Source: Candidatus Blautia faecipullorum (GTDB lineage Bacteria; Bacillota; Clostridia; Lachnospirales; Lachnospiraceae). From it: a DNA stretch of 24,000 bases. The translations under genes were made by a program, and so were the position numbers. Below, in pieces: positions 1,061 to 17,442 of the stretch; position 1 is the first letter of the stretch, and every line of letters starts with the position of its first letter. The DNA lies in the NCBI GenBank assembly GCA_019115125.1, contig DXEG01000060.1, positions 23,725-47,724 of the forward strand, given 5' to 3'. Under the pieces are notes generated by a model that saw nothing but the letters and a program-made list of their open reading frames with translations, did not search any database and was not told the origin of the DNA.

Positions 1061-4000
1061 ATGCAAATTATTGATCTTAAGAAAAGTACCACTGGAAAAT
1101 TGATGATTACATGGGAGGTTTTATTTCCCACCAATTTTGCTGACACATTAAGAAAATGTATGGACAGTGATTCCGTCCATAGGTATTTAGGCGGTGTGTC
1201 CGCTAAAAGATTCGATTCTGACGAAAAAGAAGAAATGCAGAAAGTTCTTGTCCGTATGCTTTTCGATAAAGAATATCGCTTACATGTACAAGATGGTATC
1301 GATATTACCGACAAGAAAAAATCCCAGTTCGATAAATATTTTAACGATGCACAGGGAAATCAGGATTATAACGCTGTAATTACACATATCTTTAACTGCG
1401 CTAAGTCCGGAAACTATGACTACTATTCCTTTTCTTTTACCCAAAGCCTTAAGAAGAAACTTATAGATTTATTTAATCTCTTTCCAGCTGATTATAGACA
1501 GGCATATGAGAAAGATGTCCAAAGCTTAATCGAGCAACATTTCGATAGCCATCAACAATTAAGCAAATATAAAAATGCTCTTTTAAACGTTGATTTTCCT
1601 GATCGGATTACCTGCCTTGTCTGTATTGCAATGACCTGGCCAATTTGGGATGAAAATTCAAAGCAAGCTACAGATTTAGCAAACCTTATTTTTCCCTCGG
1701 ACAACATTGAAATCATTGCTCTTGAGAAAAGTACCACTGGAAAATTGATGATTACATGGGGGGTGTTATTTCCCACCAATTTTACTGACACATTAAGAAA
1801 ATGTATGGACAGTGATTCCGTCCATACGTATTTAGGCGGTAAGTCCGACGAAGGATTCGATTCTGACGAAGGCGAAGAAATGCAGAAGGTTCTTGTCCGT
1901 ATGCTTCTTGATAAGGAATATCGTTTACGTACACAAAATGGTGTCGATATTACTAACAAGAAAAAATCCCAGTTCAATAAATATTTTAACTATGCACAGG
2001 GGAAAAAGGATTATGAAGCTGTGATTACACGTATCTTTAACTGCGCTAAATCCGGAAACTATAACTACTATTCTTTTCCTTTTACCCAAGACCTTAAGAA
2101 GAACCTTATAAATTTATTTAAACGCTTTCCATTTGATTATAAACAGAGATATGAGAAAGATGTCAAGATCTTAATCAAGCAGCATTTTGGTAGCCATCGA
2201 CTATTAAGCAAATATAAAAATGCTCTTTTAAACGTTGATTTTCCTGATCGGATTACCTGCCTTGTCTGTATTGCAATGACCTGGCCAATTTGGGATAAAA
2301 ATTTAAAGCAAGCTACAGATTTAGCAAACTTTATTTTCCCATCTGAATCATCAGACAATATTAATTCCACTGAAACCAACGCGAAAATATTAAATTATAC
2401 CGATTCAGAAAAGAAAACTGCTGCGGCTAAATCAGCAGAGGCTCACGAGCTATTCAATAAAAATGACTACCAAAAGGCAGCGGAGCTTTTTATAGAGATA
2501 ACAGATCATAAATTAGCAGATGATAATACCCTTGCTGATGCTTATTACCACTGTGCCTTGTGTATATTAGACCATAAGGCACGTATCGAAAATGTTAATG
2601 CCCGACAGTTATTATTAGAGGCTATTTGGCGTTACAATTCTAATGCCGCCATCCAGCGTTACAAAACAGAATACAAGGAAGATCTGGAAACAATACCACT
2701 TATACGTGATTTTTCACAGACACATGGAAAAGCAAGAATCATTTTAAATGCAGTTAATGAATATACTGCCGCATTCAAAGAATCTCTGCCAAAAGAAATG
2801 CAGAGCAAAGAAGAAAGGAAAAAGCTAATAACCTTTGCGGCTACCCGAGCTCAATGGGAACAGCAAGTCGATTCCATCAAAGATTTAAACATAGATTGCC
2901 GATTCTTATTATTTGATGATGATTCAGAAAAGAATTTTAAGGATTTAATATATATTCTAAACCATATATCAGCTTTGCAACAGGAAGCAACATTGGCTAA
3001 CCATACTAAAACGCTCCTTCGTTGGCACAAAACAGTCATTTACATAAGAGCAAGAGAGACTGAATACTCCGTCTTAATTGATACCGCATTAAAAAGATTG
3101 GGTAATTATACCATCCGAGTATATATCATTGATGATAATAAATGGGCCGCACAATATCTGTTATATCAGCACCCCTTGTTCCGCCCTATTCAGCACATTG
3201 ATGCGCGGACACTACAGAACACAGCCATCACACTGTCTTTTACCATTATTACCGATCAAAATCCAGACCTGACCTGCTGGTTGGTTAAAGAAGCCTTCTG
3301 GCTTGGATGTTTTAATTACAACAAACTTACACTGTCAATCAATATCGTTGGACCGGATTCAGAAAAGATTGATCAGCGACTGCGTTTTGAATGCCCTGGC
3401 ATATATGGCAAAACACCGGATTCTGATTCTGTTTCCAGAGTCATTATCAACAAACCATATGTAGTGGATTCTATTCACTCCAGCGATGCACTCAAAACTA
3501 TATGTGACTGTCATAACCCTGTAAATGCATTCAACTATTATGTGATAAATATCGGCAATAGTGCTGAAAATTTAAATTTTGCAATAAAGTTGCGAACTTT
3601 GTCTATTCGTAATCTTGTTAATTCGTATCAGAAGCTTCAAAATAGTTCTCTGCCAATGATAACCTTTTACTGTCCAGACTCAAACATCGCCCACTTATCC
3701 AAGCATATGGTTGTTCAAAATGTGAACAGCGGAGATCAGTGGTTCAATAACTATAATGTTAAGCCTTTCGGAATTATAAATGATCGTTACGCTTTTGAAA
3801 AACTGGATGGTGGATATTTGGAAAAAGTAGCACAATCTACGCACTTGCAGTATTGTCATATTGTGGCTTCTGATTCACGCACTCTAAAACTTGAAAAACT
3901 GAAAGACTATTTTTCATGGAGTTATAATCGGGATTCCTCTATGGCAGTAGCGCTTTCAATGCCATATCGGTTATTCCAGACCGTGACAGACACTAACGGG

Positions 4001-4486
4001 CACATCATATCATCAGATTTAAACATCGCACCGGATTTGGCTCCAAGCGATATAGAAGAATTGGCAAAAGCCTTTACCGCAAATCGATCCTCTTGCCAGC
4101 AGAGTCTCCTGATGTATGAACATTCAAGATGGATACGATGGGTTCTGTCACGCGGTTGGGAATCTGCATCTGCTGAGCAAGTTTTAAACTATATGAGAGA
4201 CGGGAATCCAAAACATCAGCTATTTATAGCAAAATTGCACGGATGTATATGTGGTTTGAACGAATTACAGGACTTCTCAAATTCGCTTTGTAACGAGGCA
4301 AAATATAACAGCAATATGACCCTTGGTCAAAAAAAGCGATATGCAAACGTCGGAGAACACGACTTTATTACACCATTTGATTTCAAAGCAACCGACGATT
4401 CAAATATTAAAGCAACCGCTGAAATAATAACTACGGCATTATATCCGGAAGAACTTATTGAAGAAGAGATTTTGACCGAGAAATAA
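1061..4486 (+). CDS. giant multidomain protein (1141 aa): duplicated N-terminal domain, TPR-like segment, degenerate Rossmann-like region, EHxRW (RyR-like) module
   Basis: Long ORF with GGAGGAGG 8 nt before the ATG. Residues 3-217 and 218-~435 are an in-frame tandem duplication. A TPR-like stretch follows (AEAHELFNKNDYQKAAELFIEI...ADAYYHCALCIL). The C-terminal ~400 aa is paralogous to the N-terminus of the 4947..8084 protein. It includes YEHSRW (4118..4132)...RGW...KLHGCICGLNEL, which resembles the RyR-domain signature. Confidence 0.9.
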   Translation: MQIIDLKKSTTGKLMITWEVLFPTNFADTLRKCMDSDSVHRYLGGVSAKRFDSDEKEEMQKVLVRMLFDKEYRLHVQDGIDITDKKKSQFDKYFNDAQGNQDYNAVITHIFNCAKSGNYDYYSFSFTQSLKKKLIDLFNLFPADYRQAYEKDVQSLIEQHFDSHQQLSKYKNALLNVDFPDRITCLVCIAMTWPIWDENSKQATDLANLIFPSDNIEIIALEKSTTGKLMITWGVLFPTNFTDTLRKCMDSDSVHTYLGGKSDEGFDSDEGEEMQKVLVRMLLDKEYRLRTQNGVDITNKKKSQFNKYFNYAQGKKDYEAVITRIFNCAKSGNYNYYSFPFTQDLKKNLINLFKRFPFDYKQRYEKDVKILIKQHFGSHRLLSKYKNALLNVDFPDRITCLVCIAMTWPIWDKNLKQATDLANFIFPSESSDNINSTETNAKILNYTDSEKKTAAAKSAEAHELFNKNDYQKAAELFIEITDHKLADDNTLADAYYHCALCILDHKARIENVNARQLLLEAIWRYNSNAAIQRYKTEYKEDLETIPLIRDFSQTHGKARIILNAVNEYTAAFKESLPKEMQSKEERKKLITFAATRAQWEQQVDSIKDLNIDCRFLLFDDDSEKNFKDLIYILNHISALQQEATLANHTKTLLRWHKTVIYIRARETEYSVLIDTALKRLGNYTIRVYIIDDNKWAAQYLLYQHPLFRPIQHIDARTLQNTAITLSFTIITDQNPDLTCWLVKEAFWLGCFNYNKLTLSINIVGPDSEKIDQRLRFECPGIYGKTPDSDSVSRVIINKPYVVDSIHSSDALKTICDCHNPVNAFNYYVINIGNSAENLNFAIKLRTLSIRNLVNSYQKLQNSSLPMITFYCPDSNIAHLSKHMVVQNVNSGDQWFNNYNVKPFGIINDRYAFEKLDGGYLEKVAQSTHLQYCHIVASDSRTLKLEKLKDYFSWSYNRDSSMAVALSMPYRLFQTVTDTNGHIISSDLNIAPDLAPSDIEELAKAFTANRSSCQQSLLMYEHSRWIRWVLSRGWESASAEQVLNYMRDGNPKHQLFIAKLHGCICGLNELQDFSNSLCNEAKYNSNMTLGQKKRYANVGEHDFITPFDFKATDDSNIKATAEIITTALYPEELIEEEILTEK
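1067..2368 (+). repeat. in-frame tandem direct duplication, 2 x 645 bp (215 codons) inside gene A
   Basis: Copy 1 is ~1067..1711 and copy 2 is ~1712..2368. GTACCACTGG occurs at 1086 and 1731 (offset 645). Copy 2 has a 9-nt insertion near its end (PSDNIE vs PSESSDNIN). A block of about 90-100 nt (~1561-1650 vs ~2206-2295) looks identical, while flanks differ at many nonsynonymous sites. Confidence 0.95.
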
Positions 4487-4507
4487 TTTAGAAACATTCT
4501 CAAAAAA

Positions 4508-4558
4508 GAAAACAGGGAAGCTCTCGTAACTTCATGATGAGAGAACTTCCCTGTTTTC
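4508..4558. terminator. strong hairpin, likely rho-independent and possibly bidirectional terminator after gene A
   Basis: GAAAACAGGGAAGCTCTC (4508-4525) pairs with GAGAGAACTTCCCTGTTTTC (4539-4558) with a 2-nt bulge. The T-run overlaps and follows the 3' arm, and an A-run precedes the 5' arm. It lies 22 nt after the stop of gene A. Confidence 0.7.
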
Positions 4559-4681
4559 CTACTTACAAATAATTCCGCCTCACTTTTATTCACAAAGTTC
4601 GCACAGCCTTAATCAGCGCGGTTAGATAATATGACGTGCCCCCACATTTGTAGCAACGTGGATTTACCTGTATACTAGAGT

Positions 4682-4710
4682 TTGATAAGAACAATGGTAA
4701 TCATTATAAT
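4682..4710 (+). promoter_or_regulatory. sigma-70-like promoter TTGATA-N17-TATAAT with no obvious downstream gene
   Basis: TTGATA at 4682-4687, a 17-nt spacer, then TATAAT at 4705-4710. It sits in the ~390-nt spacer between the gene A terminator and the stop of gene B. It points antisense into the 3' end of gene B. The background is AT-rich, so a chance match is possible. Confidence 0.3.
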
Positions 4711-4946
4711 AGAAAAAACTTTTTCACATCATTTCTCATATAAAAAAGATGCTTTCACAAACACTTCCTACATTTCTTTAAATGGAGAATCCCTCAAAAA
4801 TTCTACTCTTCTTATATTGAATCCAAATGTATCCAAAAATACAAGTTCTTTTCATCAATCTTCACTTGTCCACCTCTTTTGTCCTCATTTTCCTATCTTT
4901 TATGGTCATTTAATCTTTCCTTTGCTCTGGAACATCCAGACTTCTA

Positions 4947-7900
4947 CTAAATATTTGAATTCCACAACGTCTCCGTCCCCCAGATCGTCACATTCATCTG
5001 ATTTGCCCGCTCCACAAACGCAGCTCTGCCCTTGTTCCGATAATCCGAAGAGACCGCCAGAACACCCTTTGACTGGAAGTGGTCTGACACCGCTCTGATC
5101 TCATACACCCACTGCATATTATCATTGTCGGAGGTCTTACATGAAACCATCGTGGCATTCATTCCGCTTAAGGCAATGATATCAATTTCATTTTTTACAG
5201 ACTCACCTTCACCAATGATAGCCTGTTTGATCACTTCTCCCCTGGCTTTTACATACTCGCTGTATCCAAAACAGGATGGGCCCTTTCGATCAAGCATTTC
5301 AATCAGCTTCTGCTCCTGTGGAGTATCTTCAGCATCCCAGGCAATCTTAACACCGGTTTCCACATCATCATATTTTCCGGATTCACGCATCAAGTAATAG
5401 ACAATCAACTCAAAAATCAGCCCCTGTGTTTTCATAAGCCGCATAGTGGCGGCATCACTGAATGCAAAAGTGACTGTATCGTCCTCTGTATTGAACTGCA
5501 GATTCTCTATGTATCTCCTCTGCAGAAGATCCTGCAGGAAGGCCAGTTTCACCTTTCTATGTACTTCTGTTTCCTCGGAAGATACGATCGGTGCCTGCTG
5601 CACAAGGCGGCTGGAAACCTTCAGGCCACCATTCATCGGAATAAATTTTAATGACTTATATTGATCCGTCTCGGTTATCTGTCCCATCTCAAACTGTTGC
5701 AGCAAACTTCCTATCTCCGGATTTACATATTCAAAATCAACCGTAACTATGGGGCCTGCAATATTTTTCTCATAATCACGAATGATATGATACGTCTGCA
5801 ATTGTTCCAGCACATTGCCAATCATTGAATTTCGGAAGATAGTTTCGGAAAATGAACCTGTATAATGTAGTTCATCACCTTCCAGATCCTGCTTTATTCC
5901 ATCACCATAATTCATGTCTTTTGCCGCCTGGGAAAAGAATTTTGTGACTGCTGCCCAAGTATTGAAACTGCCCGAAGCCTTTCCATTGGCGCCTTTAAGA
6001 TGTGTCGGCTCACAATATTTCTTAAACAATGCCATAATGGACTCGTACTCACTGCTGTCATAAAGGCCGGCATATTCATTGGCAATCCTCCCTCCCATAA
6101 GCTGAATATATTCTGCAAGCGAAAAATTCTTATTATCCAATCCGACACCAACATTTTTATCTGCTGAAAAAGATACAATTCCCTTATTTTGCAGATACTG
6201 AACAGCATTAATGTTACCCGTATACTTTTCCATCAGTCGTCCGATAGCAAGAGCTGCGTCATATCCTCTGTTTGGCACACAGTTAATAATGATATCATGA
6301 TGTCCATACTTTATAAGTTGCTCTTCGAGGCAAGCAAATATCGACTCAACATCCATGGATGATAATGTTATGAACTCCGGAACTGTATTATTTCCGCGGC
6401 TCTCAAAATAAATCGCAATCGCATTCTGGTATTTCCTGCTATTGACCGCTTTTCCAATAAATACAGCATTCTGCGCACAGAAAAGCGTTGGAATAATTAC
6501 ATCATATGTAGATGTGGTCATTCCATCACTCAGGGTGATTACTGTTCCGTACTTCTTCCCATACCAAAGTGCAAATGGCAGCATTTCCACCAACTGTTCA
6601 TCCAGGCTAAAGAAATCCATCCTCGCATTTCTGGTTTTAATTGGAGAAAGAATCTTGTTCACTTCCTCAATGTGATCCGCTTCCTCTGAAGAAATTGATA
6701 ACGCATATTCCCTAGCTGCATCCAGAGACTTCTGATAAAGCACCAGAGAATTATCGTCATCATTGGCCAGTTTCGAAATCGCACGTCTCAGGTTGGAATA
6801 CTCGGGACTATTGCCGACAACAAGATGAAGGACAGCTTCTATGTCAACCTGGCTGGACAGCTTTTTTGTAAGCTGATGTGCTCTCAGGCTGGCCCGGTCA
6901 AGTTCAGACGGATCGTTTGCCGGGCATTTTTTTCTGATCCATAAATCATACTGATGATCAAAGTCATTTGCCAACGAAGCTTTCGTTCCGCAATCACACA
7001 GACACATATGCAGGAGTCGCTGTTTATCCTGATGGGTATTGCCATTTTGGTAAAGCAGTGTTTCCTCTTCCTTAGGTGTCGGCGCACGGAACCCGCGTGT
7101 TACGGTATATGCATTCCAGCGACGATGTTCCAGGGCAACCAGACTCCAGTAAAGCTTATTCTTCTTGCGGATAGCTTCCTTTAGTGTATCCACCGGAGCC
7201 TTCTTTATGTCCACATTCTTACACATAGCCAGTTTTACCGGAATATGAACCGCAGATGCGAAGGAAGAATCCGCTGCATAATTTGCACCGATAAAATTGG
7301 CTGCGATACTGATATCTCCGATCTCATAGTCCTTGGGAGATTCCACAAACTCTGCAACTCTGCTTGCCTCAAACTGATCATCTGCATCCTTCTTATTGAT
7401 TCGCTGATCATATTTCATACTGTAGCTGAAATTGATATTGCGGGCAATTCGATCAAGTTCCGTGCCAGTCACAGATTCATTACCAAAGAAATGTACCTCG
7501 ATGCCATTGTCCCGTCCAGCTTCTATCAGCATCTCCTGCTCATCCGTACTGATGCTATCGGAAAGTTCGTTGAAGACATTGACAAGTATTCTGTGTCGCT
7601 GCCCTGCTGATTCTGCCTGTGCCCCGGAAATCTGTGTAATCAGTTCCGAAGCAGCCAGCCAGTTATGTTCCGCATCACCCAGAGAGATGATAATATAATT
7701 ATATCTATTAGCAGCAAAATCAAGCGGGGCCAGTCCGGCAGAATCCATTCCTTTTTCGACATCAATATCAACAAAACGCAGATTCGCATAATGTTTCTGC
7801 TCCGCATACAATTTAAGCGCAGGCATACATGCTCCGGCCTTCGTGGAAAGTACCTGTTCCTTATACGCTGCGGCGTTCTGAGAGGCAACTGTGATACTTA

Positions 7901-8084
7901 GTTCTGTATCCAGCGCCTGACTGGCCCAGAATGCCGCCTTGAATGCCTCGTTTCCGATCCAGCCAGTTCCAAGGATCAGAACATTGCTCTGCTTCTTGTT
8001 TCCTCTGATTTCTGCATATTCGCAGATTGGTTTTTCATATAGAAGATCATAAATCCGCAGTCGGTATTCGCCTATTTTTGCCAT
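4947..8084 (-). CDS. giant multidomain protein (1045 aa): NAD(P)-type Rossmann head, EHxRW (RyR-like) module, CARF-like domain, PD-(D/E)xK (Card1/Can2, DUF1887-like) nuclease
   Basis: GGGAGAAGGA lies 5 nt before ATG 8084. GxGxxG is present at residues 39-44 (VLILGTGWIGNEA). EHRRW is at 7116..7130, followed by RGF...LHMCLCDCG. Residues ~512-665 resemble the Card1 CARF layout (VITLSDG...; DIIINCVPNRGYDAALAIG; NFSLAEYIQLMGG, cf. Card1 LSLKEYLDAHG). The C-terminus has GLIFELIVYY (E892), NEIDIIA (D968) and MVSCKTS (S981-x-K983), a restriction-endonuclease-fold pattern with Ser in place of the usual Glu. Confidence 0.9.
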   Translation of the reverse strand: MAKIGEYRLRIYDLLYEKPICEYAEIRGNKKQSNVLILGTGWIGNEAFKAAFWASQALDTELSITVASQNAAAYKEQVLSTKAGACMPALKLYAEQKHYANLRFVDIDVEKGMDSAGLAPLDFAANRYNYIIISLGDAEHNWLAASELITQISGAQAESAGQRHRILVNVFNELSDSISTDEQEMLIEAGRDNGIEVHFFGNESVTGTELDRIARNINFSYSMKYDQRINKKDADDQFEASRVAEFVESPKDYEIGDISIAANFIGANYAADSSFASAVHIPVKLAMCKNVDIKKAPVDTLKEAIRKKNKLYWSLVALEHRRWNAYTVTRGFRAPTPKEEETLLYQNGNTHQDKQRLLHMCLCDCGTKASLANDFDHQYDLWIRKKCPANDPSELDRASLRAHQLTKKLSSQVDIEAVLHLVVGNSPEYSNLRRAISKLANDDDNSLVLYQKSLDAAREYALSISSEEADHIEEVNKILSPIKTRNARMDFFSLDEQLVEMLPFALWYGKKYGTVITLSDGMTTSTYDVIIPTLFCAQNAVFIGKAVNSRKYQNAIAIYFESRGNNTVPEFITLSSMDVESIFACLEEQLIKYGHHDIIINCVPNRGYDAALAIGRLMEKYTGNINAVQYLQNKGIVSFSADKNVGVGLDNKNFSLAEYIQLMGGRIANEYAGLYDSSEYESIMALFKKYCEPTHLKGANGKASGSFNTWAAVTKFFSQAAKDMNYGDGIKQDLEGDELHYTGSFSETIFRNSMIGNVLEQLQTYHIIRDYEKNIAGPIVTVDFEYVNPEIGSLLQQFEMGQITETDQYKSLKFIPMNGGLKVSSRLVQQAPIVSSEETEVHRKVKLAFLQDLLQRRYIENLQFNTEDDTVTFAFSDAATMRLMKTQGLIFELIVYYLMRESGKYDDVETGVKIAWDAEDTPQEQKLIEMLDRKGPSCFGYSEYVKARGEVIKQAIIGEGESVKNEIDIIALSGMNATMVSCKTSDNDNMQWVYEIRAVSDHFQSKGVLAVSSDYRNKGRAAFVERANQMNVTIWGTETLWNSNI

Positions 8085-8177
8085 ACATCCTTCTCCCTCA
8101 CCATATGATTCATAGTCATATAAACTCTCAATTTATAATACTTCCTTCAAGATTCTCTCCCGGATCAGTTTCCTCAT

Positions 8178-8324
8178 TCAGGTCATATTCTTCAACAAAC
8201 GTTCCATCATTATTTTTTCGGCGTCTTCACTAAATTTTTTCATATCCGTTGAAATAACACGATCCGCACCTGTTCCATCCTCCAGGACAAACTTCAGAAG
8301 CATAAACTGGAAAATGTCATTCAT
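8178..8324 (-). CDS. small hypothetical protein (48 aa), translationally coupled to the wHTH gene
   Basis: Not in the ORF track (under 60 aa). The ATG at 8324 overlaps the wHTH stop (AAATGAATGA). It translates MNDIFQFMLLKFVLEDGTGADRVISTDMKKFSEDAEKIMMERLLKNMT, which is helical and protein-like. It fills most of the gap between the wHTH gene and gene B. Confidence 0.4.
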   Translation of the reverse strand: MNDIFQFMLLKFVLEDGTGADRVISTDMKKFSEDAEKIMMERLLKNMT

Positions 8325-8523
8325 TTAATAATTTCTTTCTGCCATTATAGAAATTTTCTTGTTGTTTTAAAAGAGTCAATGTATGCTTTACTTTCCTCAA
8401 TGGCAAATTTGTGATTACTGATAATTCTTCAGCAGATAGTAATTTGTCAGACGCTTTCAATGCATTCAAAACTTTTTCATCATCTTCTTTTATCCACGTT
8501 GCACATACTATTTTAAAATCCAT
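8317..8523 (-). CDS. small winged-helix (wHTH) DNA-binding protein (68 aa)
   Basis: AAAGGAGGAAGAGAGAT precedes ATG 8523. The pattern LLSAEELSVITNLPLRKVKHTLTLLKQQE is typical of a MarR/ArsR-like recognition helix plus wing. Same strand as gene B and upstream of it. Confidence 0.7.
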   Translation of the reverse strand: MDFKIVCATWIKEDDEKVLNALKASDKLLSAEELSVITNLPLRKVKHTLTLLKQQENFYNGRKKLLNE

Positions 8524-8607
8524 ATCTCTCTTCCTCCTTTAAGTTTCAATTTGTCATCCTGATTTTCTCTTTTGCAATTCGTGTAAATAAATCGGGGTAA
8601 TATCATT

Positions 8608-8912
8608 ACCTCATGAACCAAACGGCAGCCCGTCTTCCTAAATACCTGGTTGTCATGGCGATGAAAGGCGTTGGGTCTTCTCTGGGTCCTCAGCTGATGG
8701 CCGAATCGGGGATGTGGCCCGTATCACTCACCGAAACGCCATTACTGCATTTGCCGACGTTGACCCCTGTGTAAATGAATCCGGAGACTACGCCCAGAAA
8801 AGTGTCCATGCGTCAAAGCAGGGCTCTCCTGCACTGCGTAAGACATTGTTCCAGGTCATGGATGTCCTGATCAAGACAAAGCCTCAGAATGATCCAACAT
8901 ACTTGTTTGATA
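8608..8912 (+). pseudogene. IS110-family transposase remnant (C-terminal ~100 codons, 5'- and 3'-truncated, frameshifted)
   Basis: It reads ...AARLPKYLVVMAMKGVGSSLGPQLMAE, then after a 1-nt loss near 8705 continues (I)GDVARITHRNAITAFADVDPCVNESGDYAQKSVHASKQGSPALRKTLFQVMDVLIKTKPQNDPTYLF. This matches the conserved C-terminal block of IS110/IS1111-type transposases (GVG...AEIGD...F...aGl.P...SG....isk.G...lR..l). The N-terminal catalytic part is absent. Homology stops where the 186-aa minus-strand gene ends. Confidence 0.8.
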
Positions 8913-8917
8913 ATAAC

Positions 8918-9478
8918 CTATCGGATCACGCTATATGTCCTGTCAAATTCGTCTCTTTCAACGAAATTCCAATCACACTCGGTCACATTGCCTACATCAT
9001 CATAAGAAATACCGTAGAAAATGAGCATTGCATCCTCTGTGGCTGCCTCCATGGTTCCCCAAAGCTGCGCTGTATATCTCCGGTCTGAAGAAGCCTTATC
9101 AATGACCAGCCCCTTCTTTTCTACCAAAAACGTCACCTCAGGACACATCTCAAGCTTCGCATCCCAGGCTGGCAGAGGCTTCGGAATCTGCTCGAAGGTA
9201 TCTCCTTCGATATGTCTGTGATTCGCCTCAAAGTATTCCTTATCATTGGGATATGGACTGTCGGTACTATCCAGCTTGATCCAGTCACCAGCCATCGCTT
9301 TCTCTCCGCCGACAGCTCCGTTGACTGCCTCCCGCGAATGGATTTCATATCTGCCATCACCAAGATCGCAGATCTTGCCATTCAGCATCAGTTCTTTTAT
9401 AACAGCATTATCGCTTCCCAGCTGATAAGCCTTAACCAATTTTCCTTTATTCTTAATCACTTCATACATGATTTTCAC
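8918..9478 (-). CDS. hypothetical protein (186 aa)
   Basis: ORF-track frame with GAGGTG 6 nt before ATG 9478. Ordinary globular composition. No motif I recognise. Confidence 0.7.
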   Translation of the reverse strand: MKIMYEVIKNKGKLVKAYQLGSDNAVIKELMLNGKICDLGDGRYEIHSREAVNGAVGGEKAMAGDWIKLDSTDSPYPNDKEYFEANHRHIEGDTFEQIPKPLPAWDAKLEMCPEVTFLVEKKGLVIDKASSDRRYTAQLWGTMEAATEDAMLIFYGISYDDVGNVTECDWNFVERDEFDRTYSVIR

Positions 9479-9542
9479 CTCATAATGTCACATCAATCCT
9501 TGCTTTCTGTTTGCTTCAGGGGCTATGATTAAAAATTAACGG

Positions 9543-9562
9543 AGAAGCTGTCAACAGCTTTT
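9543..9562. terminator. short hairpin with flanking T/A runs, possible terminator between rsr and the 186-aa gene
   Basis: AAGCTG-tcaa-CAGCTT (9545-9560) is extendable by A-T/G-U pairs. TTTATATT follows on the plus strand and AAAAA precedes on the minus strand. About 135 nt downstream of the rsr stop. Confidence 0.3.
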
Positions 9563-9695
9563 TATATTATATCATAGAATCTTCCTATGAGCCATTGCAA
9601 AACGCTATCCACCTCTCCGTTTTCTAAAGTTGTATAGCTACCTTCGTCCCAGGATCTGCTGATCACCACCTCCTTCCCGGGAACAAAGCTCGATG

Positions 9696-11231
9696 TTACG
9701 CCGTTTTCTCGGATTTGTTGTAGTTTTCCACATCCTTTACCATACTTCCCATCCCTGCTTCTGCAAGGTTAATGAACGAAAGTACACGGTCGCTCCAGCC
9801 TGCAATGAGGTTAAAGCGTGCGCCGCAGAACTGCTGTGTACCATAGCCCTGAAGATCTACACCATGCACCCAGAAGTCTTTGTTGTACTTGCTGCGGTAT
9901 TTGTTCGCAAGCCCCTGTATGGTGGTTTCAAGACCACAGTTGCACTCGTTATCCGAGAAATAGATAACTCGGTCGAACGGCTTAAAGCGTTTGCCCTTAT
10001 CGACCTCCAATGCATATTCCATCGGAAGTGAAAGGTCTGTGCCACCGCCTGCAAATGAGTTCTGTAATGCAATTTCAAGAACAGAATCATACTTGCCATA
10101 GTTTGCGATACGATATCCTCTCTCTTCACTGTTTTTATACACATCCTCCGGGAATTGCATTCCGCGCCGTCTGTAGTATTCACGATAGAGAGTCTTCGAT
10201 GCTTCAAAGTAGCATACCGTTGCATCTTCGCAAAGCTTGTTTGTCATCGCCCCGAGTAAAGAAGCGATATCAGAGCAGCGGATATCGCTCTTTGCAGAAA
10301 TCCGACAGCTCATTGAACCGGATACATCAATGGCGATAAGTGTTCTGCCCTTGATTTTCTCCATATTATCAACCGAAGCCGTAACTGCGCTCTCGAGAGC
10401 ACGGTGAATCTCATCAGTCATGAGTCCTTCCTTCTCAAGCATGCGATAAGCGCTGAAGAAACGGAACGGAAGCTGCTTCGACTTCTTCACCTGAACCGAA
10501 TCAGAAAGTACCGCAAGCACCGGAGTGATATCCGCACCGGACATAATAATGTTGCGAAGGTTACGAAGCAATGCCATGTAGCCAACTTTGCCGGATGCAA
10601 TAAGCTCATCCCAGACTTCCCTTGTATTGCCACGAGAGGAAAGTTCCGTTTCCCAGGTGTACGGAGTCTCAAGGGTATCGTTTAAGATCTTCCCAAAGAG
10701 TTCCTCAATCTCTTTGGACTTCGGATTCGGATGTGTAATGCGGAGAATATCACGGAACTTCACATCTTTGCAGCCGCCATTGTATTTTGCAATCTGGTAC
10801 TCATCGAAGTTCTGGATCACCTCAGCCATCCCACGCTTTAATGCGTTCGGAAACGGCTTGCCATACATGGTCTTGTAGCAGGCCATGATTTCTGTAACAT
10901 CATCCGGACGTTTGACCACACTACAAATGGTCTGGCGGGTAAATGCAGATGCCTCGCGGGCGATCGCAGCGGTAAGCACATGGCTTACAGAACGCATGTT
11001 GAAAACCTCACGAGCAAAGCAGGCAAGGTTGCTAACAAACTCCGGGTGCTTCTTGCAGAGTTCTGTTGCAAGCTGGACGATTTCGTTATCCGTGGATCCA
11101 TAGTATTTTTCCTCGCTAAACATGGTGGTCACTACTGCTGTCATAAGTTGTTCCTTATTGCTCATTCGGTATGCTGCATGACCGGAACGGTTTTCGGTTT
11201 TGATTGTGTTGGTTGTGTTGAACTTAGCCAT
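9696..11231 (-). CDS. rsr: Ro60-related protein Rsr (TROVE domain + C-terminal vWA domain)
   Basis: 511 aa with GGAGGTG 6 nt before the ATG. The N-terminal and central TROVE-like sequence (NRSGHAAYRM...EKYYG...; GYMALLRNLRNI; KQLPFRFFSAY) is followed by a vWA MIDAS motif (LIAIDVSGSMS). Two Y-RNA-like genes lie immediately upstream, which is the classic rsr context. Confidence 0.9.
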   Translation of the reverse strand: MAKFNTTNTIKTENRSGHAAYRMSNKEQLMTAVVTTMFSEEKYYGSTDNEIVQLATELCKKHPEFVSNLACFAREVFNMRSVSHVLTAAIAREASAFTRQTICSVVKRPDDVTEIMACYKTMYGKPFPNALKRGMAEVIQNFDEYQIAKYNGGCKDVKFRDILRITHPNPKSKEIEELFGKILNDTLETPYTWETELSSRGNTREVWDELIASGKVGYMALLRNLRNIIMSGADITPVLAVLSDSVQVKKSKQLPFRFFSAYRMLEKEGLMTDEIHRALESAVTASVDNMEKIKGRTLIAIDVSGSMSCRISAKSDIRCSDIASLLGAMTNKLCEDATVCYFEASKTLYREYYRRRGMQFPEDVYKNSEERGYRIANYGKYDSVLEIALQNSFAGGGTDLSLPMEYALEVDKGKRFKPFDRVIYFSDNECNCGLETTIQGLANKYRSKYNKDFWVHGVDLQGYGTQQFCGARFNLIAGWSDRVLSFINLAEAGMGSMVKDVENYNKSEKTA

Positions 11232-11295
11232 TTGGGCACCTCCATCTTTCTTAAGTGTATGGGGAAATATGTGACTGTTTATATAAATAACATGC

Positions 11296-11422
11296 AGAGA
11301 ATAGGCGATAACAGTAAATATAACGCTTTCCCATTAAGCTACAGAACAGCTATGCTGTCCCAGTGGGATTCGAACCCACATCCCTCGATAACCAGACTCG
11401 AAGTAACTGCCATCTGCACTGC
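11296..11422 (-). ncRNA. yrlA: Y RNA, YrlA-type with tRNA-like module (copy 1, rsr-proximal)
   Basis: On the minus strand the ends form a long stem (GAUGGCAGU with ACUGUUAUC, including two G-U pairs). Enclosed are a variable-arm-like hairpin (CUUCGA...UCGAGG) and a T arm GUGGG-UUCGAAU-CCCAC (11363..11379). Next come an acceptor-like stem closed by a loop (UGGGACAG-CAUAG-CUGUUCUG), then UA and a D arm (GCUU-AAUGGGA-AAGC). This permuted tRNA mimic matches the published YrlA architecture. RNA ends are not determined. Confidence 0.8.
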
Positions 11423-11440
11423 TGCATGATATTTATCCTT

Positions 11441-11482
11441 CAAATGAAACTGCCGAACCGGTCGCTTCACTCAGCCCGGCAG
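11441..11482 (-). terminator. hairpin plus U-rich tract between the two Y RNA genes
   Basis: Minus strand reads CUGCCGGGC...GACCGGUUCGGCAG (stem with G-U pairs, plus coordinates 11450..11482) followed by UUUCAUUUG. It sits about 20 nt downstream of the distal Y RNA. Confidence 0.4.
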
Positions 11483-11500
11483 CTTCTGTAACCACATATA

Positions 11501-11627
11501 AGAGAATCGGCGATAACAGTAAACAAAGCGCTTGACCGTTAAGCTACGGAACAGCTCAGCCGTCCCGGTGGGATTCGAACCCACATCCCTCGATAACCAG
11601 ACTCGAAGTAACTGTTATCTGCACTGC
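11501..11627 (-). ncRNA. yrlA: Y RNA, YrlA-type with tRNA-like module (copy 2, distal)
   Basis: Same 127-nt architecture, offset 205 nt from copy 1. Terminal stem is GAUAACAGU/ACUGUUAUC (9 perfect bp). T arm is GUGGG-UUCGAAU-CCCAC. The closed acceptor-like stem is CGGGACGG-CUGAG-CUGUUCCG and the D arm is GCUU-AACGGUC-AAGC. Differences from copy 1 fall in loops or keep pairing (A-U to G-U, C-G to U-G). Confidence 0.8.
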
Positions 11628-11699
11628 CTATATGTAATTACCAATGTATCTGATGTGTCTGTGCTTTCGTCTTAATCTTCCAAGACTCATCAGGGGCGT

Positions 11700-11786
11700 T
11701 CATTGCCCGAGCACAATGTGCTTCGGTAAAGGTTCCACCGGATTGTACGCTATCCGGCTTCTTTGAATAAATCCTGACCAATACAT
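11700..11786 (-). CDS. possible 28-aa upstream ORF or leader peptide
   Basis: AAAGGAGGAGGT lies 4 nt before ATG 11786. It translates MYWSGFIQRSRIAYNPVEPLPKHIVLGQ. The region also contains hairpins (CCGGAT-N8-ATCCGG), so it may be a structured leader rather than coding. Confidence 0.25.
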   Translation of the reverse strand: MYWSGFIQRSRIAYNPVEPLPKHIVLGQ

Positions 11787-11830
11787 CCGACCTCCTCCTT
11801 TCGATGATTCAATATTAAACCCTTATTTTT

Positions 11831-11866
11831 GTTTCAGCATCTGTGGCATCCCACAGAAACTGAAAC
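11831..11866 (-). other. nested inverted repeat / RNA hairpin downstream of the AAA+ gene
   Basis: GTTTCAG-cat-CTGTGG-catc-CCACAG-aaa-CTGAAAC, with 7-bp outer and 6-bp inner arms. No U-tract follows on the minus strand, so it is not a canonical terminator. Confidence 0.5.
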
Positions 11867-11870
11867 TGTC

Positions 11871-11888
11871 TTTGAAACTTTTGAAACA
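11871..11888 (-). promoter_or_regulatory. two adjacent copies of the TTTGAAAC(T/A) motif
   Basis: TTTGAAACT at 11871-11879 and TTTGAAACA at 11880-11888. They sit 27-44 nt after the AAA+ stop and about 85-100 nt upstream of the 11786 uORF. Confidence 0.35.
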
Positions 11889-11914
11889 CATTTCTGATCA
11901 AATCATGCCTACTG

Positions 11915-13291
11915 TCAGGCCCCGGCAGGAAGAGCTGTTTCCTCCTCTGGTACGATTGTTATGACAATATTTTCGATATCACCTGACAGTAAAACCTTGT
12001 GGCCTTTGTATCGACCAATATTGCGATCATACACAGTTGCTGCTGTGATTGCCTCTCTCACAGCGTCCCTGACGCCCCTGGCGCCATAGTTGCTGTGCTG
12101 TTCCTTCAGCTGCACCATTAGTTCCTCGTCCATATGCTCAAGTTCCATCTCGTAATTCTGCAGCTCTTCCACTACAAATTTGCTGACGATGTCTGTAAGC
12201 GCATCTGCGGGAAGTTCACGGAAAGCCAGACAGTTCGTAATCTTGCCGGCGATTTCCGGATGACCGCAGGCCTTAGCGAGAGTGTTTCTACAAATCTCCT
12301 TCTTTCGGAATGCTGACGCCTCTTCATAAACCTTCATATCTACCGGAATGTTGCTGGTAATGACAAAAATCACATGGCTCAGATCAATATCCGGTGAATT
12401 GTCCGCAAGGTGAACCACACCGCTGGAAAAGCATTCCATAAGCCCGGTATAGATACGATCCGTTGCCTTCTCAATCTCGTCCAGCAGGAAAACCTGGTAT
12501 GGATTGGATCGGACAGGCTCAAACACTGTAGGATCCTTATAGCCTATATAGGAAGGCGGAGATCCGAAGAATCTGTTGACCGAATGCTCACCAATGAACT
12601 CGTTGAGGGCAATCTGATGAAACCCATAAGCCTGTCCGGTCAGCTTCTCCAGTGCTCCCGGAAGAGCTTTTCCAACCTCTGTTTTGCCAACACCGGTCGG
12701 GCCAAAGAGAACAATAACCTCAACTTCTGGCTTTTTTCTGCGGAGATTTGCTGAAATCAGTTCACTGATCTTTTTGATAGCTTCGTCCTGTCCGTAAATA
12801 CCACGCTTCAGTTCCGCCGCCAGTTCATCCGGCCAGACCGTTTTTGTCTGCTTCTTCTGTTCAAGTTCACGGACTTTATCCTTATCCACAATGTATTTTG
12901 AGCTGCCTGCAGCTGTCTCGTTCTCACTTGTCTGCGACAAAGTTACTGCAGATTTCATCGGATTTTTCTCAGCTTCCTGCGATTTTTCCAGCACTGTATA
13001 ACTCCACACCTGATCGGTATTGCAGATTGTTACAGTTCCACCATCCTCCTCTGGCTTGAATTCGATGACCATATCCACAGCCGGAATGTCCTGCGGCAGG
13101 CTCACACGTCCCGCCTCCATACAGGTTTTATCAGCAAAGTTAACGTGGTAAATCTCCATCTCTTTTTTCCCGCTGATTCCCTGAAGCATTTTCCTCAGAC
13201 CACTTTTACCACTCATCAAAATGACAGATGTCAAATGACCACGGTCTTCATCGAAACCAATTACGATACAGTCTTTATCTGAATATCTCAT
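11915..13291 (-). CDS. Clp/Hsp100-type AAA+ ATPase (single ClpB/ClpA D2-like module) with a novel ~180-aa N-terminal domain
   Basis: IYGQDEAIKKI..., Walker A (LFGPTGVGKTEVGKAL), FFGSPPSYIGYKD, Walker B (FLLDEIEKA) and sensor (VITSNIP) follow the AAA_2 (ClpB D2) pattern. Start set at ATG 13291 (GGAAAGGGGGA 7 nt upstream) rather than ATG 13333, which has no SD. Confidence 0.85.
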   Translation of the reverse strand: MRYSDKDCIVIGFDEDRGHLTSVILMSGKSGLRKMLQGISGKKEMEIYHVNFADKTCMEAGRVSLPQDIPAVDMVIEFKPEEDGGTVTICNTDQVWSYTVLEKSQEAEKNPMKSAVTLSQTSENETAAGSSKYIVDKDKVRELEQKKQTKTVWPDELAAELKRGIYGQDEAIKKISELISANLRRKKPEVEVIVLFGPTGVGKTEVGKALPGALEKLTGQAYGFHQIALNEFIGEHSVNRFFGSPPSYIGYKDPTVFEPVRSNPYQVFLLDEIEKATDRIYTGLMECFSSGVVHLADNSPDIDLSHVIFVITSNIPVDMKVYEEASAFRKKEICRNTLAKACGHPEIAGKITNCLAFRELPADALTDIVSKFVVEELQNYEMELEHMDEELMVQLKEQHSNYGARGVRDAVREAITAATVYDRNIGRYKGHKVLLSGDIENIVITIVPEEETALPAGA

Positions 13292-13333
13292 GTGAGATTC
13301 CCCCTTTCCTTTTGATAAGTCCATTTCCTGCAT

Positions 13334-14050: not shown

Positions 14051-14079
14051 TAGAAACGCCTCCTTACAAAACCGTCCGT

Positions 14080-14466: not shown

Positions 14467-14555
14467 TTTGTATTCCTCCTGCCTTTTGATGATTTAAGGA
14501 TAAACTCTTCTGATCATTTCATCATCCGGCGGCTTTTGTTTCTGCTGAAACTACA

Positions 14556-14564
14556 TTTGAAACT
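14556..14564 (-). promoter_or_regulatory. TTTGAAACT motif abutting the E1 stop codon, with a second GTTTCAG half-site and GTTTC/GAAAC inverted repeat next to it
   Basis: TTTGAAACT at 14556-14564 and CTGAAACT at 14545-14552. On the minus strand these are AGTTTCA repeats 11 nt apart (start to start). GTTTC-tgct-GAAAC lies at 14538-14551. About 90 nt upstream of ATG 14466. Confidence 0.35.
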
Positions 14565-16569: not shown

Positions 16570-16580
16570 AGACACCTCCG

Positions 16581-17033: not shown

Positions 17034-17045
17034 ATGCAACCCTCC

Positions 17046-17426: not shown

Positions 17427-17442
17427 TGTACAGTCCTCCTTT

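Follow-up and report, generated by a model that had tools for sequence, protein, structure and literature searches.

A Rossmann–RyR module fused to a CARF-like nuclease: a candidate TIR-signalled immune effector in gut Clostridia

Introduction

The 24,000-nucleotide stretch of Candidatus Blautia faecipullorum DNA analysed here (the window) carries two large convergent genes, A and B (Table 1). They lie on a conjugative element of gut Clostridia whose other genes include TraG/TrwB, ClpP and the like. What kind of system do these genes belong to? A sequence-only reading had described a conflict or defence locus without a known name, in which A would be a degenerate sensor, B the catalytic effector and a neighbouring winged-helix (wHTH) gene part of the system. 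The domain identities, their conservation and the linkage of the genes, as observed here, place B among predicted nuclease effectors and draw attention to a different set of partners, namely TIR-domain genes.

Table 1. Features of the A/B locus (window coordinates)
Feature	Position	Strand	Basis or remark
Gene A	1061..4486	+	intact ORF, 1141 aa; 31 homologues
A aa 1-430, two tandem ~213-aa helical domains	1061..2350	+	645-nt DNA duplication
A aa ~530-700, pre-M Rossmannoid domain	2650..3160	+	hhalign; B has no such domain
A aa 678-1070, module M	3092..4270	+	glycine loop degenerate (IITDQNPD), RyR motifs retained
Convergent spacer, A stop to B stop	4487..4946	.	460 nt
Gene B	4947..8084	-	intact ORF, 1045 aa; 101 homologues
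B aa 851-1045, Card1-type PD-(D/E)xK nuclease	4950..5534	-	Pfam PF09002, PADLOC, PDB 1xmx alignment
B aa 501-690, CARF-like Rossmannoid domain	6015..6584	-	Foldseek alignment to Card1/Can2/VC1899
B aa ~262-400, RyR (PF02026-type) domain	6885..7301	-	RyR-region profile matches solved RyR domains
B aa 1-370, module M	6975..8084	-	TrkA-N/KTN-like Rossmann with GTGWIG loop (aa 39-44), then RyR
Lineage-specific ~814-bp segment, variable slot upstream of B	8098..8911	.	blastn
48-aa ORF, overlaps 68-aa ORF	8178-8324	-	in identical loci only
68-aa ORF ('wHTH')	8317-8523	-	sub-threshold winged-helix matches, E 0.035-0.16
IS110-family Transposase_20 fragment	8714-8890	+	E 1.4e-7
186-aa gene	8918..9478	-	tblastn and synteny

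A and B share a Rossmann and RyR module

The C-terminal part of A is homologous to the N-terminal part of B, and every similarity block listed in the earlier reading was reproduced. Comparison of the two family alignments by hhalign pairs A678-1068 with B2-367 at E 2.9e-17 (probability 98.9 %); BLASTP matches A949-1064 to B263-363 (E 2e-5). The common module (M) spans ~370 aa and consists of a TrkA-N-like Rossmann domain and an RyR domain (PF02026). The GxGxxG loop is kept in B as GTGWIG (G39/G41/G44), with G39 invariant and G41 nearly invariant in the B-family alignment, and is lost at the aligned position of A, as had been noted. The RyR motifs of B are Y..DSS.A, ALEHRRW (H320, W323), LLHMC (H359) and ELDR (D396); H320, W323, H359 and D396 are invariant across 56 B-family sequences. 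A carries YEHSRW (H1021, W1024) and KLHGC (H1060). A profile of the RyR region of B matches solved RyR domains (6uhi, E 3.8e-8, or 1.9e-13 with a larger profile; 3nrt, E 6e-3 and 1.5e-6 in profile searches), an assignment at the level of the family profile; the B sequence alone finds no Pfam RyR at E <= 1. The Rossmann part of B gives weak generic NAD(P)-Rossmann fold matches in Foldseek. Sequence profiles match both TrkA-N/KTN and the bacterial 'putative ryanodine receptor' proteins (e.g. Bacteroides thetaiotaomicron, PDB 3nrt/4n05), although the K+ transporter context of the former is missing and the RyR domains of A and B contain long insertions that set them apart from the latter.

Module M is a portable unit with 474 representative clusters (phmmer). 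Among family members at other loci, RyR was matched in 9/48 and TrkA_N in 4/48, the latter weakly (best E 6e-4). Other relatives fuse the module to a protein kinase (6/59) or a Card1 nuclease (3/59), and unfused M proteins adjoin stand-alone CARF-nucleases in five loci (L019, L083, L038, L032 and L136). In some loci, small canonical RyR genes (~94-aa protein) are tightly coupled 3' of B or M2 genes, and those adjoining B and M2 relatives are near-canonical in sequence.

B is a predicted CARF-like nuclease effector

B is built as a Rossmann and RyR module, a helical linker, a CARF-like domain, a winged-helix-like linker and a PD-(D/E)xK nuclease (AF2 model: pLDDT 89.3, pTM 0.86). With this model, Foldseek finds VC1899 (1xmx, 6e-11), Can2 (8bao, 4e-9) and Card1 (6xl1, 1e-7). 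PADLOC matches CARF4--CARF_PDDEXK (2e-10), and Pfam Card1_endonuc (PF09002) scores just below its gathering cut-off (E 2.8e-5; 24.1 bits vs 26.4). The CARF-like domain and nuclease proposed earlier are thereby borne out. No library names the system as a whole: Pfam covers the nuclease domain only, PADLOC the CARF-nuclease only and NCBIfam nothing. The nuclease motif reads N965-E966-I-D968 ... S981-C-K983, with N965, E966, S981 and K983 invariant and D968 nearly so in the B-family alignment. From its fold and nuclease motif, B is predicted to be a CARF-like nuclease effector.

Card1, Can2 and VC1899 are CARF4 plus PD-(D/E)xK proteins, cA4-activated ancillary nucleases of type III CRISPR systems. 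B shares with them the fold order of CARF-like domain, linker and nuclease (TM-score 0.58-0.64, target-normalised), as well as the nuclease family PF09002 with its NEID...xCK motif. Given that these proteins are its top structural and sequence matches, B could be an ordinary cyclic-oligoadenylate nuclease with an N-terminal regulatory domain, and A and TIR unrelated neighbours. We regard this as highly improbable. B adds an N-terminal extension of ~500 aa (M and the helical linker), has SCK in place of ECK and, throughout its family, CVPN in place of the canonical CARF 'TGG' loop (consensus IINCVPN). A CRISPR context is also missing: no CRISPR-like array was found in 154/155 collected loci or in the window, no cas gene occurs among the annotated neighbour families, and the recurrent neighbours are TIR and RyR genes. 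Stand-alone CARF-nuclease relatives keep a canonical DLTGG loop, which fits the CRISPR-ancillary reading; in those that adjoin M proteins, the loop hints that a CARF ligand may matter too.

A is a fast-changing partner with a retained RyR pocket

A comprises a duplicated all-helical N-domain, a helical stretch, a pre-M Rossmannoid domain and a module M that has a dead glycine loop along with its RyR domain. The duplicated domain described earlier corresponds to aa 1-213 and 217-430, encoded by a 645-nt DNA repeat of 89 % identity. This duplication occurs in one homologue only (94 % identical), other relatives being ~936 aa long with a single copy, and the aa 1-430 region varies by partner type. 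The pre-M domain is common to M1/M2 proteins of ~600-870 aa: in hhalign, A431-677 matches an alignment of this region from 92 M-proteins (97 %, E 4.8e-11). It showed no similarity to TIR or CARF. The proposed TPR-like stretch was not confirmed, the model there being of low confidence with no significant fold match (AF2 model of A: pLDDT just 64). No recognisable effector domain was found in A.

The glycine loop is degenerate in every A-like partner from other loci, and the RyR H..W motif is kept. Judged by protein identity to the window, A is evolving faster than B: B is 67 % and A 42 % identical in L090, and 56 % and 36 % in L092. A is a distinct lineage of the module family. Its dinucleotide loop is dead and its RyR pocket preserved, while its N-terminal half changes fast; most likely it is an accessory RyR-module protein.

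TIR genes adjoin B more often than A-like genes do

A same-strand TIR-domain gene lies within 2 kb of B in 22 of ~45 non-redundant B loci and within 10 kb in 27, in a sample that is biased because loci were retrieved by motif patterns, with TIR domains detected by a home-made HMM. Counted over 42 non-redundant B loci, TIR is found within 1 kb in 19 (same strand in 19/19) and within 10 kb in 24. TIR ORFs account for ~4 % of all genes across the collected loci, whereas ~45 % of B genes have an immediate TIR neighbour, although such islands are generally rich in TIR genes and the adjacency may partly reflect island composition. No TIR was found within 10 kb in ~18/~45 B loci, some of them on short contigs. 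Precomputed Pfam annotation of three further contigs independently gives the same pattern (B-RyR-TIR-TIR; TIR-B; B-RyR-x-TIR-TIR-(A-like)). The seed TIRs are Pfam-verified and ThsB-like by PADLOC, and the catalytic Glu column is conserved in the TIRs. The sensor domains of TIR proteins near B relatives vary (FtsK-like ATPase, Sel1/TPR, MORN). Neither the link to TIR nor the class of ligand that it implies (ADP-ribose-derived TIR signals) had figured in the sequence-only reading.

A-like genes do accompany B at other loci, but less often than TIR-domain genes: a partner is present in 15/~45 B loci, nearly always convergent and over B identities of 27-100 %, and two thirds of B loci have none. 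In 11 B loci TIR and A-like genes occur together. This census bears on the idea that A and B are self-contained, with A sensing an invader and activating the nuclease of B by heteromerising through the common module, free of TIR. The recurrence of the convergent pair fits such a scheme, as do four distinct pair loci without TIR in the available sequence (the window, L008, L089 and L087, the last with only 2.2 kb upstream). The partner type also changes between loci whose B genes each show ~89-90 % identity to that of the window (the partners in L086 and L087 share 29 % identity), and such exchange of partner N-termini between near-identical B genes would suit a specificity subunit; the faster divergence of A agrees with this, and RyR domains are known to work as dimers (PMC13232231). 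Nevertheless, we think a TIR-free pair unlikely, since A-like genes are so often missing, TIR is the commoner neighbour and occurs together with A-like genes in the 11 loci noted above, the convergent genes form no operon and the wHTH lacks conservation. In addition, conservation of the RyR ligand residues in both A and B argues for a small-molecule ligand. Of the two-gene sensor/effector proposal, the Rossmann/RyR module, the nuclease effector and the dead-loop partner stand, as does the defence-type character of the locus; the self-contained pair with a wHTH of its own is not supported, and neither is the sensor role of A.

The slot upstream of B is variable

The genes converge on a common spacer, as described before, in which no gene remnant was detected; an ORF overlapping B (4682-5098, +) is conserved only in its B-overlapping part. 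Upstream of B, blastn homology with relatives ends at ~8912 and starts again at ~8097. The intervening slot is occupied by TIR genes in L086, L096 and L099 and measures just 80 bp in L089. In the window it holds an IS110-family fragment, which confirms the IS scar, and the 68-aa and 48-aa ORFs. These two had been taken for a wHTH gene of the system and a coupled ORF, but the winged-helix matches of the 68-aa ORF fall below threshold, and both ORFs are lineage-specific, being confined to loci identical with that of the window and absent from relatives whose B is 90 % identical. Many relatives, some with B only 27 % identical, have the 186-aa gene immediately upstream of B. It has no match in Pfam, PADLOC or NCBIfam and is possibly a third component, or a backbone gene of the conjugative element. 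No TIR gene was found in the 24-kb window.

A proposed TIR-signalled nuclease

Thoeris anti-phage systems comprise types I-XI and further putative types, 29 in number, with predicted 'DNase' effectors mentioned (Yirmiya et al. 2025 preprint, 10.64898/2025.12.03.692087). The B loci resemble them in that TIR gene(s) with variable sensor domains stand beside an effector made of a nucleotide-binding and a toxic domain, in the swapping of effector domains round a constant sensor, and in their location on mobile islands. They differ in that the predicted signal-binder of B is Rossmann plus RyR, not SLOG, Macro or the others named in the preprint text (10.64898/2025.12.03.692087), in the Card1-type CARF-like nuclease as toxic part, in the second RyR-bearing protein (A-like or ~94-aa RyR) that often accompanies B, and in the window copy having no TIR gene. 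The B family may be among the 29 putative types.

Phage RyR-domain proteins, the subject of two 2026 preprints, offer a lead to the ligand. RyDEP and RyR Tad (PF02026) are phage anti-Thoeris factors that bind or cleave TIR-made cADPR signals, acting on 2'/3'cADPR through H..W, H and D residues (PMC13232231; 10.64898/2026.06.04.730250), to which the RyR residues of B correspond by motif (PMC13232231; 10.64898/2026.06.04.730250). They belong to the same domain family and share the H..W / H / D ligand motif, but are small and act against defence by sequestering or hydrolysing cADPR isomers, whereas the RyR domains here are host- or element-encoded and follow a Rossmann domain, with a nuclease fused to them in B. 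Taken with the TIR linkage, these preprints lead us to read B as a nuclease activated by a TIR signal. On balance we favour an immune cassette of the TIR-signalling (Thoeris-like) kind, with B as its effector, that occupies a variable slot of a conjugative element of Clostridia. We infer its ligand and activation from small, only distantly related phage proteins, and the role of A and any defence phenotype are put forward in the same conditional sense.

In relatives, an invader would be sensed and neighbouring TIR proteins would turn NAD+ into an ADP-ribose-derived signal. The RyR domain in the N-terminal module of B would serve as the receptor, probably binding the signal jointly with the adjacent GxGxxG Rossmann domain. 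The helical linker could then relay the change to a Card1/Can2-like dimeric CARF-like scaffold, which would lack a canonical cOA-binding loop of its own, and the PD-(D/E)xK nuclease would be activated to degrade nucleic acid. A might act on the signal, buffering or ending it much as the RyR sponges and glycosidases of phages do but encoded by the host. Alternatively, A might gate B by pairing through the RyR/Rossmann module.

The anti-Thoeris role of the phage proteins also suggests that the RyR-module proteins, A especially, are anti-defence cargo that neutralises Thoeris signals of the recipient, as sponge or glycosidase, during conjugative transfer. The conjugative element and a separately transcribed A with no recognisable effector domain would suit this, but it seems quite improbable to us: cassettes that end in an A-like gene (L096, L102 and L155) themselves code for TIR proteins and a nuclease, A is ~10 times bigger than known sponges, and the intact nuclease of B is hard to reconcile with it. 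More probably, B is a previously undescribed immune effector of Thoeris-like TIR signalling, its TIR genes apparently having been lost in the window. With the TIR cassette missing and an IS110 scar in its slot, B and A may here be orphaned, reliant on a TIR protein encoded elsewhere, or TIR-independent.

Architecture of the A–B Pair

Genes A and B are both intact and converge on a spacer of 460 nt (see table). B is 100% identical to a hypothetical protein of a Candidatus Blautia faecipullorum MAG and is present on 23 contigs. Neither A nor B nor the 186-aa protein encoded upstream of B has a model in NCBIfam. The sequence-only reading had proposed that A and B share a module, here called M (B residues 1–370, A residues 678–1070), and this similarity is borne out. 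BLASTP aligns A949–1064 with B263–363 in the RyR part (E 2e-5), and profile–profile comparison of the two families aligns A678–1068 with B2–367 (98.9% probability, E 2.9e-17), recovering all the sequence blocks on which the proposal was built. The glycine loop reads GTGWIG in B and IITDQNPD at the aligned site of A, as had been seen. The first 430 residues of A do form a tandem duplication (645-nt repeat, 89% nucleotide identity), common to one close homologue only; other family members carry a single copy. The candidate explanation that A and B are recent paralogues was ruled out, as both modules are nearer to the M2 clade (related module proteins of ~730–870 aa) than to one another; A-like modules and B modules form separate clades.

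Two other domain calls did not hold up. All winged-helix matches of the 68-aa "wHTH" product were sub-threshold, and the model of A, in which the "TPR-like" stretch lies, is poor (pLDDT 64), with a PDB search returning weak matches to TPR proteins, none significant. On some contigs a 138-aa ORF running antisense to the 3′ end of B is annotated as a gene. Its conservation is limited to the stretch that overlaps B, so it is probably spurious.

Coordinates of features in the window and gene content of selected related loci (L numbers)
Sequence	Feature	Position	Strand	Remarks
Window	Gene A	1061-4486	+	intact ORF, 1141 aa
Window	Antisense ORF	4682-5098	+	138 aa, probably spurious
Window	Gene B	4947-8084	-	intact ORF, 1045 aa
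Window	Slot segment (~814 bp)	~8097-8912		holds IS110 fragment, 68-aa and 48-aa ORFs
Window	IS110-family transposase fragment	8714-8890		IS scar
Window	186-aa protein gene	8918-9478	-	without family match
Window	TROVE/Ro60 + vWA gene	9696-11231	-	Pfam 1.4e-34
Window	Conserved upstream string	11915-17480	-	also in L008, L089, L096, L102, L158
Window	ThiF/E1-like gene	14564-16575	-	split over two frames around 15877-16030
Window	TrwB/TraG-type coupling protein	20196-21602	-	2.7e-30; then bacterial PH-domain protein
L014	Stand-alone RyR gene	13251-13532
L083	Stand-alone RyR gene	6548-6829
L155	Stand-alone RyR gene	10203-10487
L157	Stand-alone RyR gene	10343-10627
L014	Xre-type HTH gene	9697-9999		100 aa, directly upstream of B
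L157	Xre-type HTH gene	6693-6995		100 aa, directly upstream of B
L155	Gene content			B, 94-aa RyR protein, 487-aa protein, two TIR-Sel1 proteins, convergent A-like gene (precomputed Pfam)
L156	Gene content			TIR-TPR, B (precomputed Pfam)
L157	Gene content			HTH_3 protein, B, 94-aa RyR protein, TIR, TIR-MORN (precomputed Pfam)

The Shared Module

Related loci were taken from species-representative genomes and metagenomes, and among those collected M is widespread in Clostridia. A single-sequence exhaustive search with B1–370 returned 474 representative clusters at E ≤ 1e-3. The Pfam family PF02026 (RyR) matches 9 of 48 M-containing proteins (best 1.6e-7); B alone has no Pfam match to RyR at E ≤ 1, and eight A-like partners, one M2 protein, and one M1 protein (the related group of ~600 aa) gave no Pfam match. 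Profiles of the C-terminal part of M match solved RyR domains, namely 6uhi (3.8e-8 and 1.9e-13) and, at about 1e-6, the Bacteroides "putative ryanodine receptor" structures 3nrt/4n05 (3nrt 1.5e-6, family profile). Thus, judged at the profile level, B belongs among the RyR proteins. Matches of M relatives to PF02254 (TrkA_N) are weak (4/48, best 0.0025; 1/59, 6e-4), and Foldseek finds nothing beyond generic NAD(P)-Rossmann matches for B (E > 0.008). The GxGxxG loop of B recurs in M1 and M2 relatives and is degenerate in A and all A-like partners. The Pfam matches to RyR and TrkA_N, together with those to solved RyR structures, lead us to describe M as a predicted KTN/TrkA-N-like Rossmann domain with one insertion-bearing RyR repeat behind it.

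M occurs in several settings. Among 59 other relatives, it is fused to a Ser/Thr kinase domain in six, and in three it is joined to a Card1 nuclease in another domain order; in most it lies behind uncharacterized N-terminal regions. M-only proteins fall into the M1 and M2 groups, whose genes are often adjacent. Residues ~530–1070 of A match the entire M1/M2 core, in which a pre-M Rossmannoid domain precedes M (hhalign 97%, E 4.8e-11); the idea that this pre-M domain is a hidden TIR or CARF domain was rejected (hhalign probability ≤ 0.5%). M2 often adjoins a stand-alone ~415-aa CARF plus PD-(D/E)xK nuclease with a canonical DLTGG CARF loop, so B looks like a fusion of two such neighbors, which are encoded separately side by side elsewhere.

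The Nuclease Half of B

The CARF-like plus nuclease assignment for the rest of B was confirmed. On the structure model of B, which is confident (pLDDT 89, pTM 0.86), Foldseek matches the C-terminal half to VC1899, Can2, and Card1 with E values from 6e-11 to 1e-7 (1xmx 6e-11, 8bao 4e-9, 6xl1 1e-7) over ~550 aligned columns; viral structures gave no significant Foldseek match. Pfam Card1_endonuc, PADLOC CARF4–CARF_PDDEXK (CARF4 match 2e-10), and a PDB sequence match agree. The catalytic motif is NEID968...S981-C-K983, with N965, E966, S981, and K983 invariant, and its SxK variant is common to B and the stand-alone relatives.

In B, as in Card1 and Can2, a Card1-type nuclease fold comes after a CARF fold, and B could on these grounds be an ordinary cOA-responsive member of that group. 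However, the canonical TGG-type CARF loop is missing in the B family, which has IINCVPN where the stand-alone relatives have DLTGG. CRISPR-like arrays were absent from 154 of 155 loci and from the window, and cas families were absent from the annotated neighbors within ±10 kb. Because both the CARF loop and the CRISPR context fail to fit, B is not assigned to the cOA-sensing Card1/Can2 proteins, and that explanation is very improbable. The CARF-like domain of B is probably a dimeric transmission scaffold rather than a ligand site.

TIR Genes Beside B

In several loci, TIR-domain genes stand directly beside B, with C-terminal parts that vary between TIR alone, TIR plus Sel1/TPR, and TIR plus MORN (Pfam). 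When a TIR HMM built from Pfam-verified seeds was run over all loci, 19 of the 42 non-redundant full-length B loci had a TIR gene within 1 kb of B, on the same strand in every case, and 24 had one within 10 kb. With L155–L157 added, the counts are about 22/45 within 2 kb and 27/45 within 10 kb; the precomputed Pfam annotation of these further contigs agrees independently with the linkage. TIR ORFs account for ~4% of the genes in these loci overall, so TIR genes stand next to B much more often than the island average would give, by what is a crude control. Most B-adjacent TIR domains keep the catalytic-Glu column (W...E), and they resemble ThsB at modest E (PADLOC).

The genomic arrangement of Thoeris, a TIR gene beside an effector with a nucleotide-binding domain, is thus found in the B family but not at the window copy, and the B locus presumably works like Thoeris. 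In the accessible part of a survey of Thoeris systems, predicted DNase effectors appear among 29 putative types, with no mention of RyR there (10.64898/2025.12.03.692087); B-like effectors may already be among those 29 types.

M1 is also TIR-linked (15/41 within 1 kb), and TIR plus HD and TIR plus LRR genes occur in M1-type loci (Pfam). The typical string is M1, TIR-LRR, and a CitMHS-like membrane protein. This operon recurs, with M1 (~600 aa, Rossmann plus RyR), a TIR plus BspA-type LRR protein (549 aa), and the CitMHS-like protein (380 aa), in L051, L054, L057, L062, L066, L073, L145, and L152 (locus positions ~8400–13100), in many cases with genes for a 737-aa protein and a ~1900-aa transglutaminase-like giant ahead of it. 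Possibly the operon is a second TIR/RyR system whose effector is a membrane protein.

The RyR Pocket

The motifs ALEH320RRW323, LLH359MC, and ELD396R are invariant in 56 B-family members; they match the RyR ligand-pocket residues, namely the H..W of helix 1, the H of K.HP, and the D of YDR. A keeps H1021, W1024, and H1060, and its equivalent of the Asp is uncertain. B residues were matched by motif, rather than by superposition, to those of two phage RyR-domain anti-Thoeris proteins, RyDEP and RyR Tad. RyDEP is a dimer with key residues H75, W78, H100, and D117, and its homologues are sponges (PMC13232231). RyR Tad sequesters 1''-3' gcADPR via H129/W132, K147/H154, and K170/D171 (10.64898/2026.06.04.730250). 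Binding and cleavage of TIR-derived cADPR isomers by RyR-type domains was shown in mid-2026 in small phage anti-defence proteins only (PMC13232231; 10.64898/2026.06.04.730250). Literature searches found no paper tying RyR domains to host effectors or CARF nucleases, and nothing relevant on RyR with CARF, RyR with conflict systems, or CARF with ryanodine.

On balance, B appears to be a TIR-signal-activated, Card1-type nuclease effector, a reading we lean toward with modest confidence. Its domains, residue conservation, and gene linkage are observed; the proposed ligand and activation path are as follows. The Rossmann plus RyR module of B would be the receptor for the TIR signal, and the CARF-like domain, its TGG loop lost family-wide, would pass activation on as a dimeric scaffold.

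Partner A and Other Companions of B

In 15 of ~45 loci, with B identities spanning 27–100%, B has an A-like gene no more than 10 kb away, almost always convergent and at the far end of the cassette. The C-terminal ~550 aa are conserved in all partners, with the glycine loop degenerate and the EH.RW motif intact, whereas the N-terminal halves are of at least four unrelated types. Partner types are exchanged even between B genes ~89–90% identical to that of the window; for instance, the partners in L086 and L087 are 29% identical. A also diverges faster than B: relative to the window copies, a B at 67% identity goes with an A at 42%, and a B at 56% with an A at 36%. TIR and A-like genes occur together in 11 loci, and many loci have TIR without an A-like gene. 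Conversely, the window, L008, L087, and L089 have an A-like gene without TIR in the available sequence.

The sequence-only reading took A as sensor and B as effector of a two-gene defence system, and the four loci without TIR are what such a TIR-independent pair would look like. The presence of A-like genes in 15 of ~45 loci, the TIR-only loci, and the swapped N-terminal halves mark A as an often-present yet dispensable accessory, with a variable half that behaves like a specificity or regulatory element. A TIR-independent sensor/effector pair is considered unlikely. As to its role, and to any defence phenotype, which we infer from the observed domain identities, conservation, and linkage, A would be an accessory RyR-module protein that buffers or terminates the signal, comparable to ring nucleases and phage RyR sponges. 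Alternatively, A could pair with B and gate it, because RyR domains work as two-fold dimers. The window pair would on either account be one without its cis TIR.

Small near-canonical RyR proteins (93–109 aa) are encoded immediately after M2 genes and some B genes, in the four loci of the table and ~25 others. At one extreme the two genes overlap by 58 nt and at the other they are 64 nt apart, with most gaps no larger than about 30 nt; this tight coupling suggests a stoichiometric second RyR subunit. The window has no small RyR gene.

Other companions recur. L012, L094, and L100 carry, upstream of B on the same strand and instead of an A-like partner, a larger B-like paralogue (1383–1450 aa; uncharacterized N-terminus, M, linker, and nuclease), adjacent to B in L012 and L100 and 4.5 kb off in L094. 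In a B subfamily at 34–36% identity, an Xre-type HTH gene lies directly upstream of B; the L014 and L157 products are 61% identical and unrelated to the 68-aa ORF of the window. A conserved cluster in L031, L034, and L049 combines M2 (~860 aa), a small RyR protein, a ~1160-aa double-AAA+ protein with an FtsH-type M41 peptidase, a stand-alone CARF plus PD-(D/E)xK nuclease (DLTGG), and 273-aa, 85-aa, and YbjN-like proteins.

The Window Copy and Its Surroundings

Homology of the window to its relatives (blastn) ends at ~8912, the end of the conserved 186-aa gene, and resumes at ~8097, 13 nt upstream of B. The intervening slot contains the IS scar that had been noted next to the locus, and the 68-aa and 48-aa ORFs in it are confined to loci identical to the window. 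In L086 (B 90% identical) the slot spans 5.6 kb with a double-TIR protein and a TIR plus FtsK-like ATPase protein; other TIR genes occupy it in L096 and L099, and in L089 it is 80 bp. These differing contents identify it as a variable cassette site at which the window lineage has an IS scar in place of TIR genes. No TIR gene was found in the 24-kb window, nor were remnants of TIR or small RyR genes in the A–B spacer or the window-specific upstream segment.

The 186-aa gene is the immediate upstream neighbor of B in two distinct contexts, also where B is only 27% identical to that of the window (L102, L117), and its product may be a third component. The TROVE/Ro60 gene sits between the AAA_2 and 186-aa genes in the window and L086-type loci only; Rfam searches returned nothing relevant, with no Y-RNA or other family at gathering score anywhere in the window. 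The conserved string upstream of the slot comprises a ~150-aa protein, E1-like ThiF, a ~128–146-aa protein, YARHG (in some), an AAA_2 ATPase, and the 186-aa protein. PADLOC matches its ThiF to E1-E2/Cap2-like (2e-22) and its AAA_2 to DolB/PDC-M37B-like proteins (1e-21), and the string could be a conflict system in its own right, of ubiquitin-like or AAA+ type, or else element backbone. The ThiF/E1-like gene, a single gene of 646–650 aa in relatives, is split in the window; the 650-aa L008 orthologue matches frame −1 and then −3. Either the gene is a frameshift pseudogene, in keeping with a degree of decay in the element, or the assembly is in error.

The surroundings are those of a conjugative element and cargo (TraG/TrwB, TROVE/Ro60, ClpB/DolB-like AAA+, YARHG, and ThiF/E1-like), a further TraG gene and ClpP lie beyond the left edge of the window (seen in L001), ClpP just outside it, and the whole window is conjugative-element DNA. 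With phage RyR proteins acting against Thoeris, the pair could be anti-Thoeris cargo of this element; given the nuclease of B and the TIR-encoding cassettes that end in A-like genes, we consider this quite improbable.

Implications

A wider joint reading is possible, and we offer it tentatively. RyR would be a host-side receptor for TIR-made ADP-ribose signals as well as a phage tool against them, and B-type proteins would form a new Thoeris class, their sensor being the bacterial ancestor-type of Repeat12, a domain of animal ryanodine receptors. The animal receptors have this same pocket. Completing or tuning a two-fold pocket would fall to a second RyR subunit (A or the ~94-aa RyR protein), as obligate heterodimer partner or built-in buffer, and in TIR-less pairs the variable half of A would couple invader recognition directly to B.

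If B is activated in this way, it would be a natural TIR-signal receptor built on the RyR fold, in the sensor position of a nuclease, beside TIR genes, and in a widespread host/element family. It would also represent a new effector class joining the Thoeris and type III CRISPR (Card1/Can2) toolkits, and a testable case of sensor-domain exchange between two signaling immune pathways. The M family is frequent on the conjugative elements of gut Clostridia and so may shape, within the gut microbiome, phage sensitivity as well as the traffic of plasmids and ICEs.
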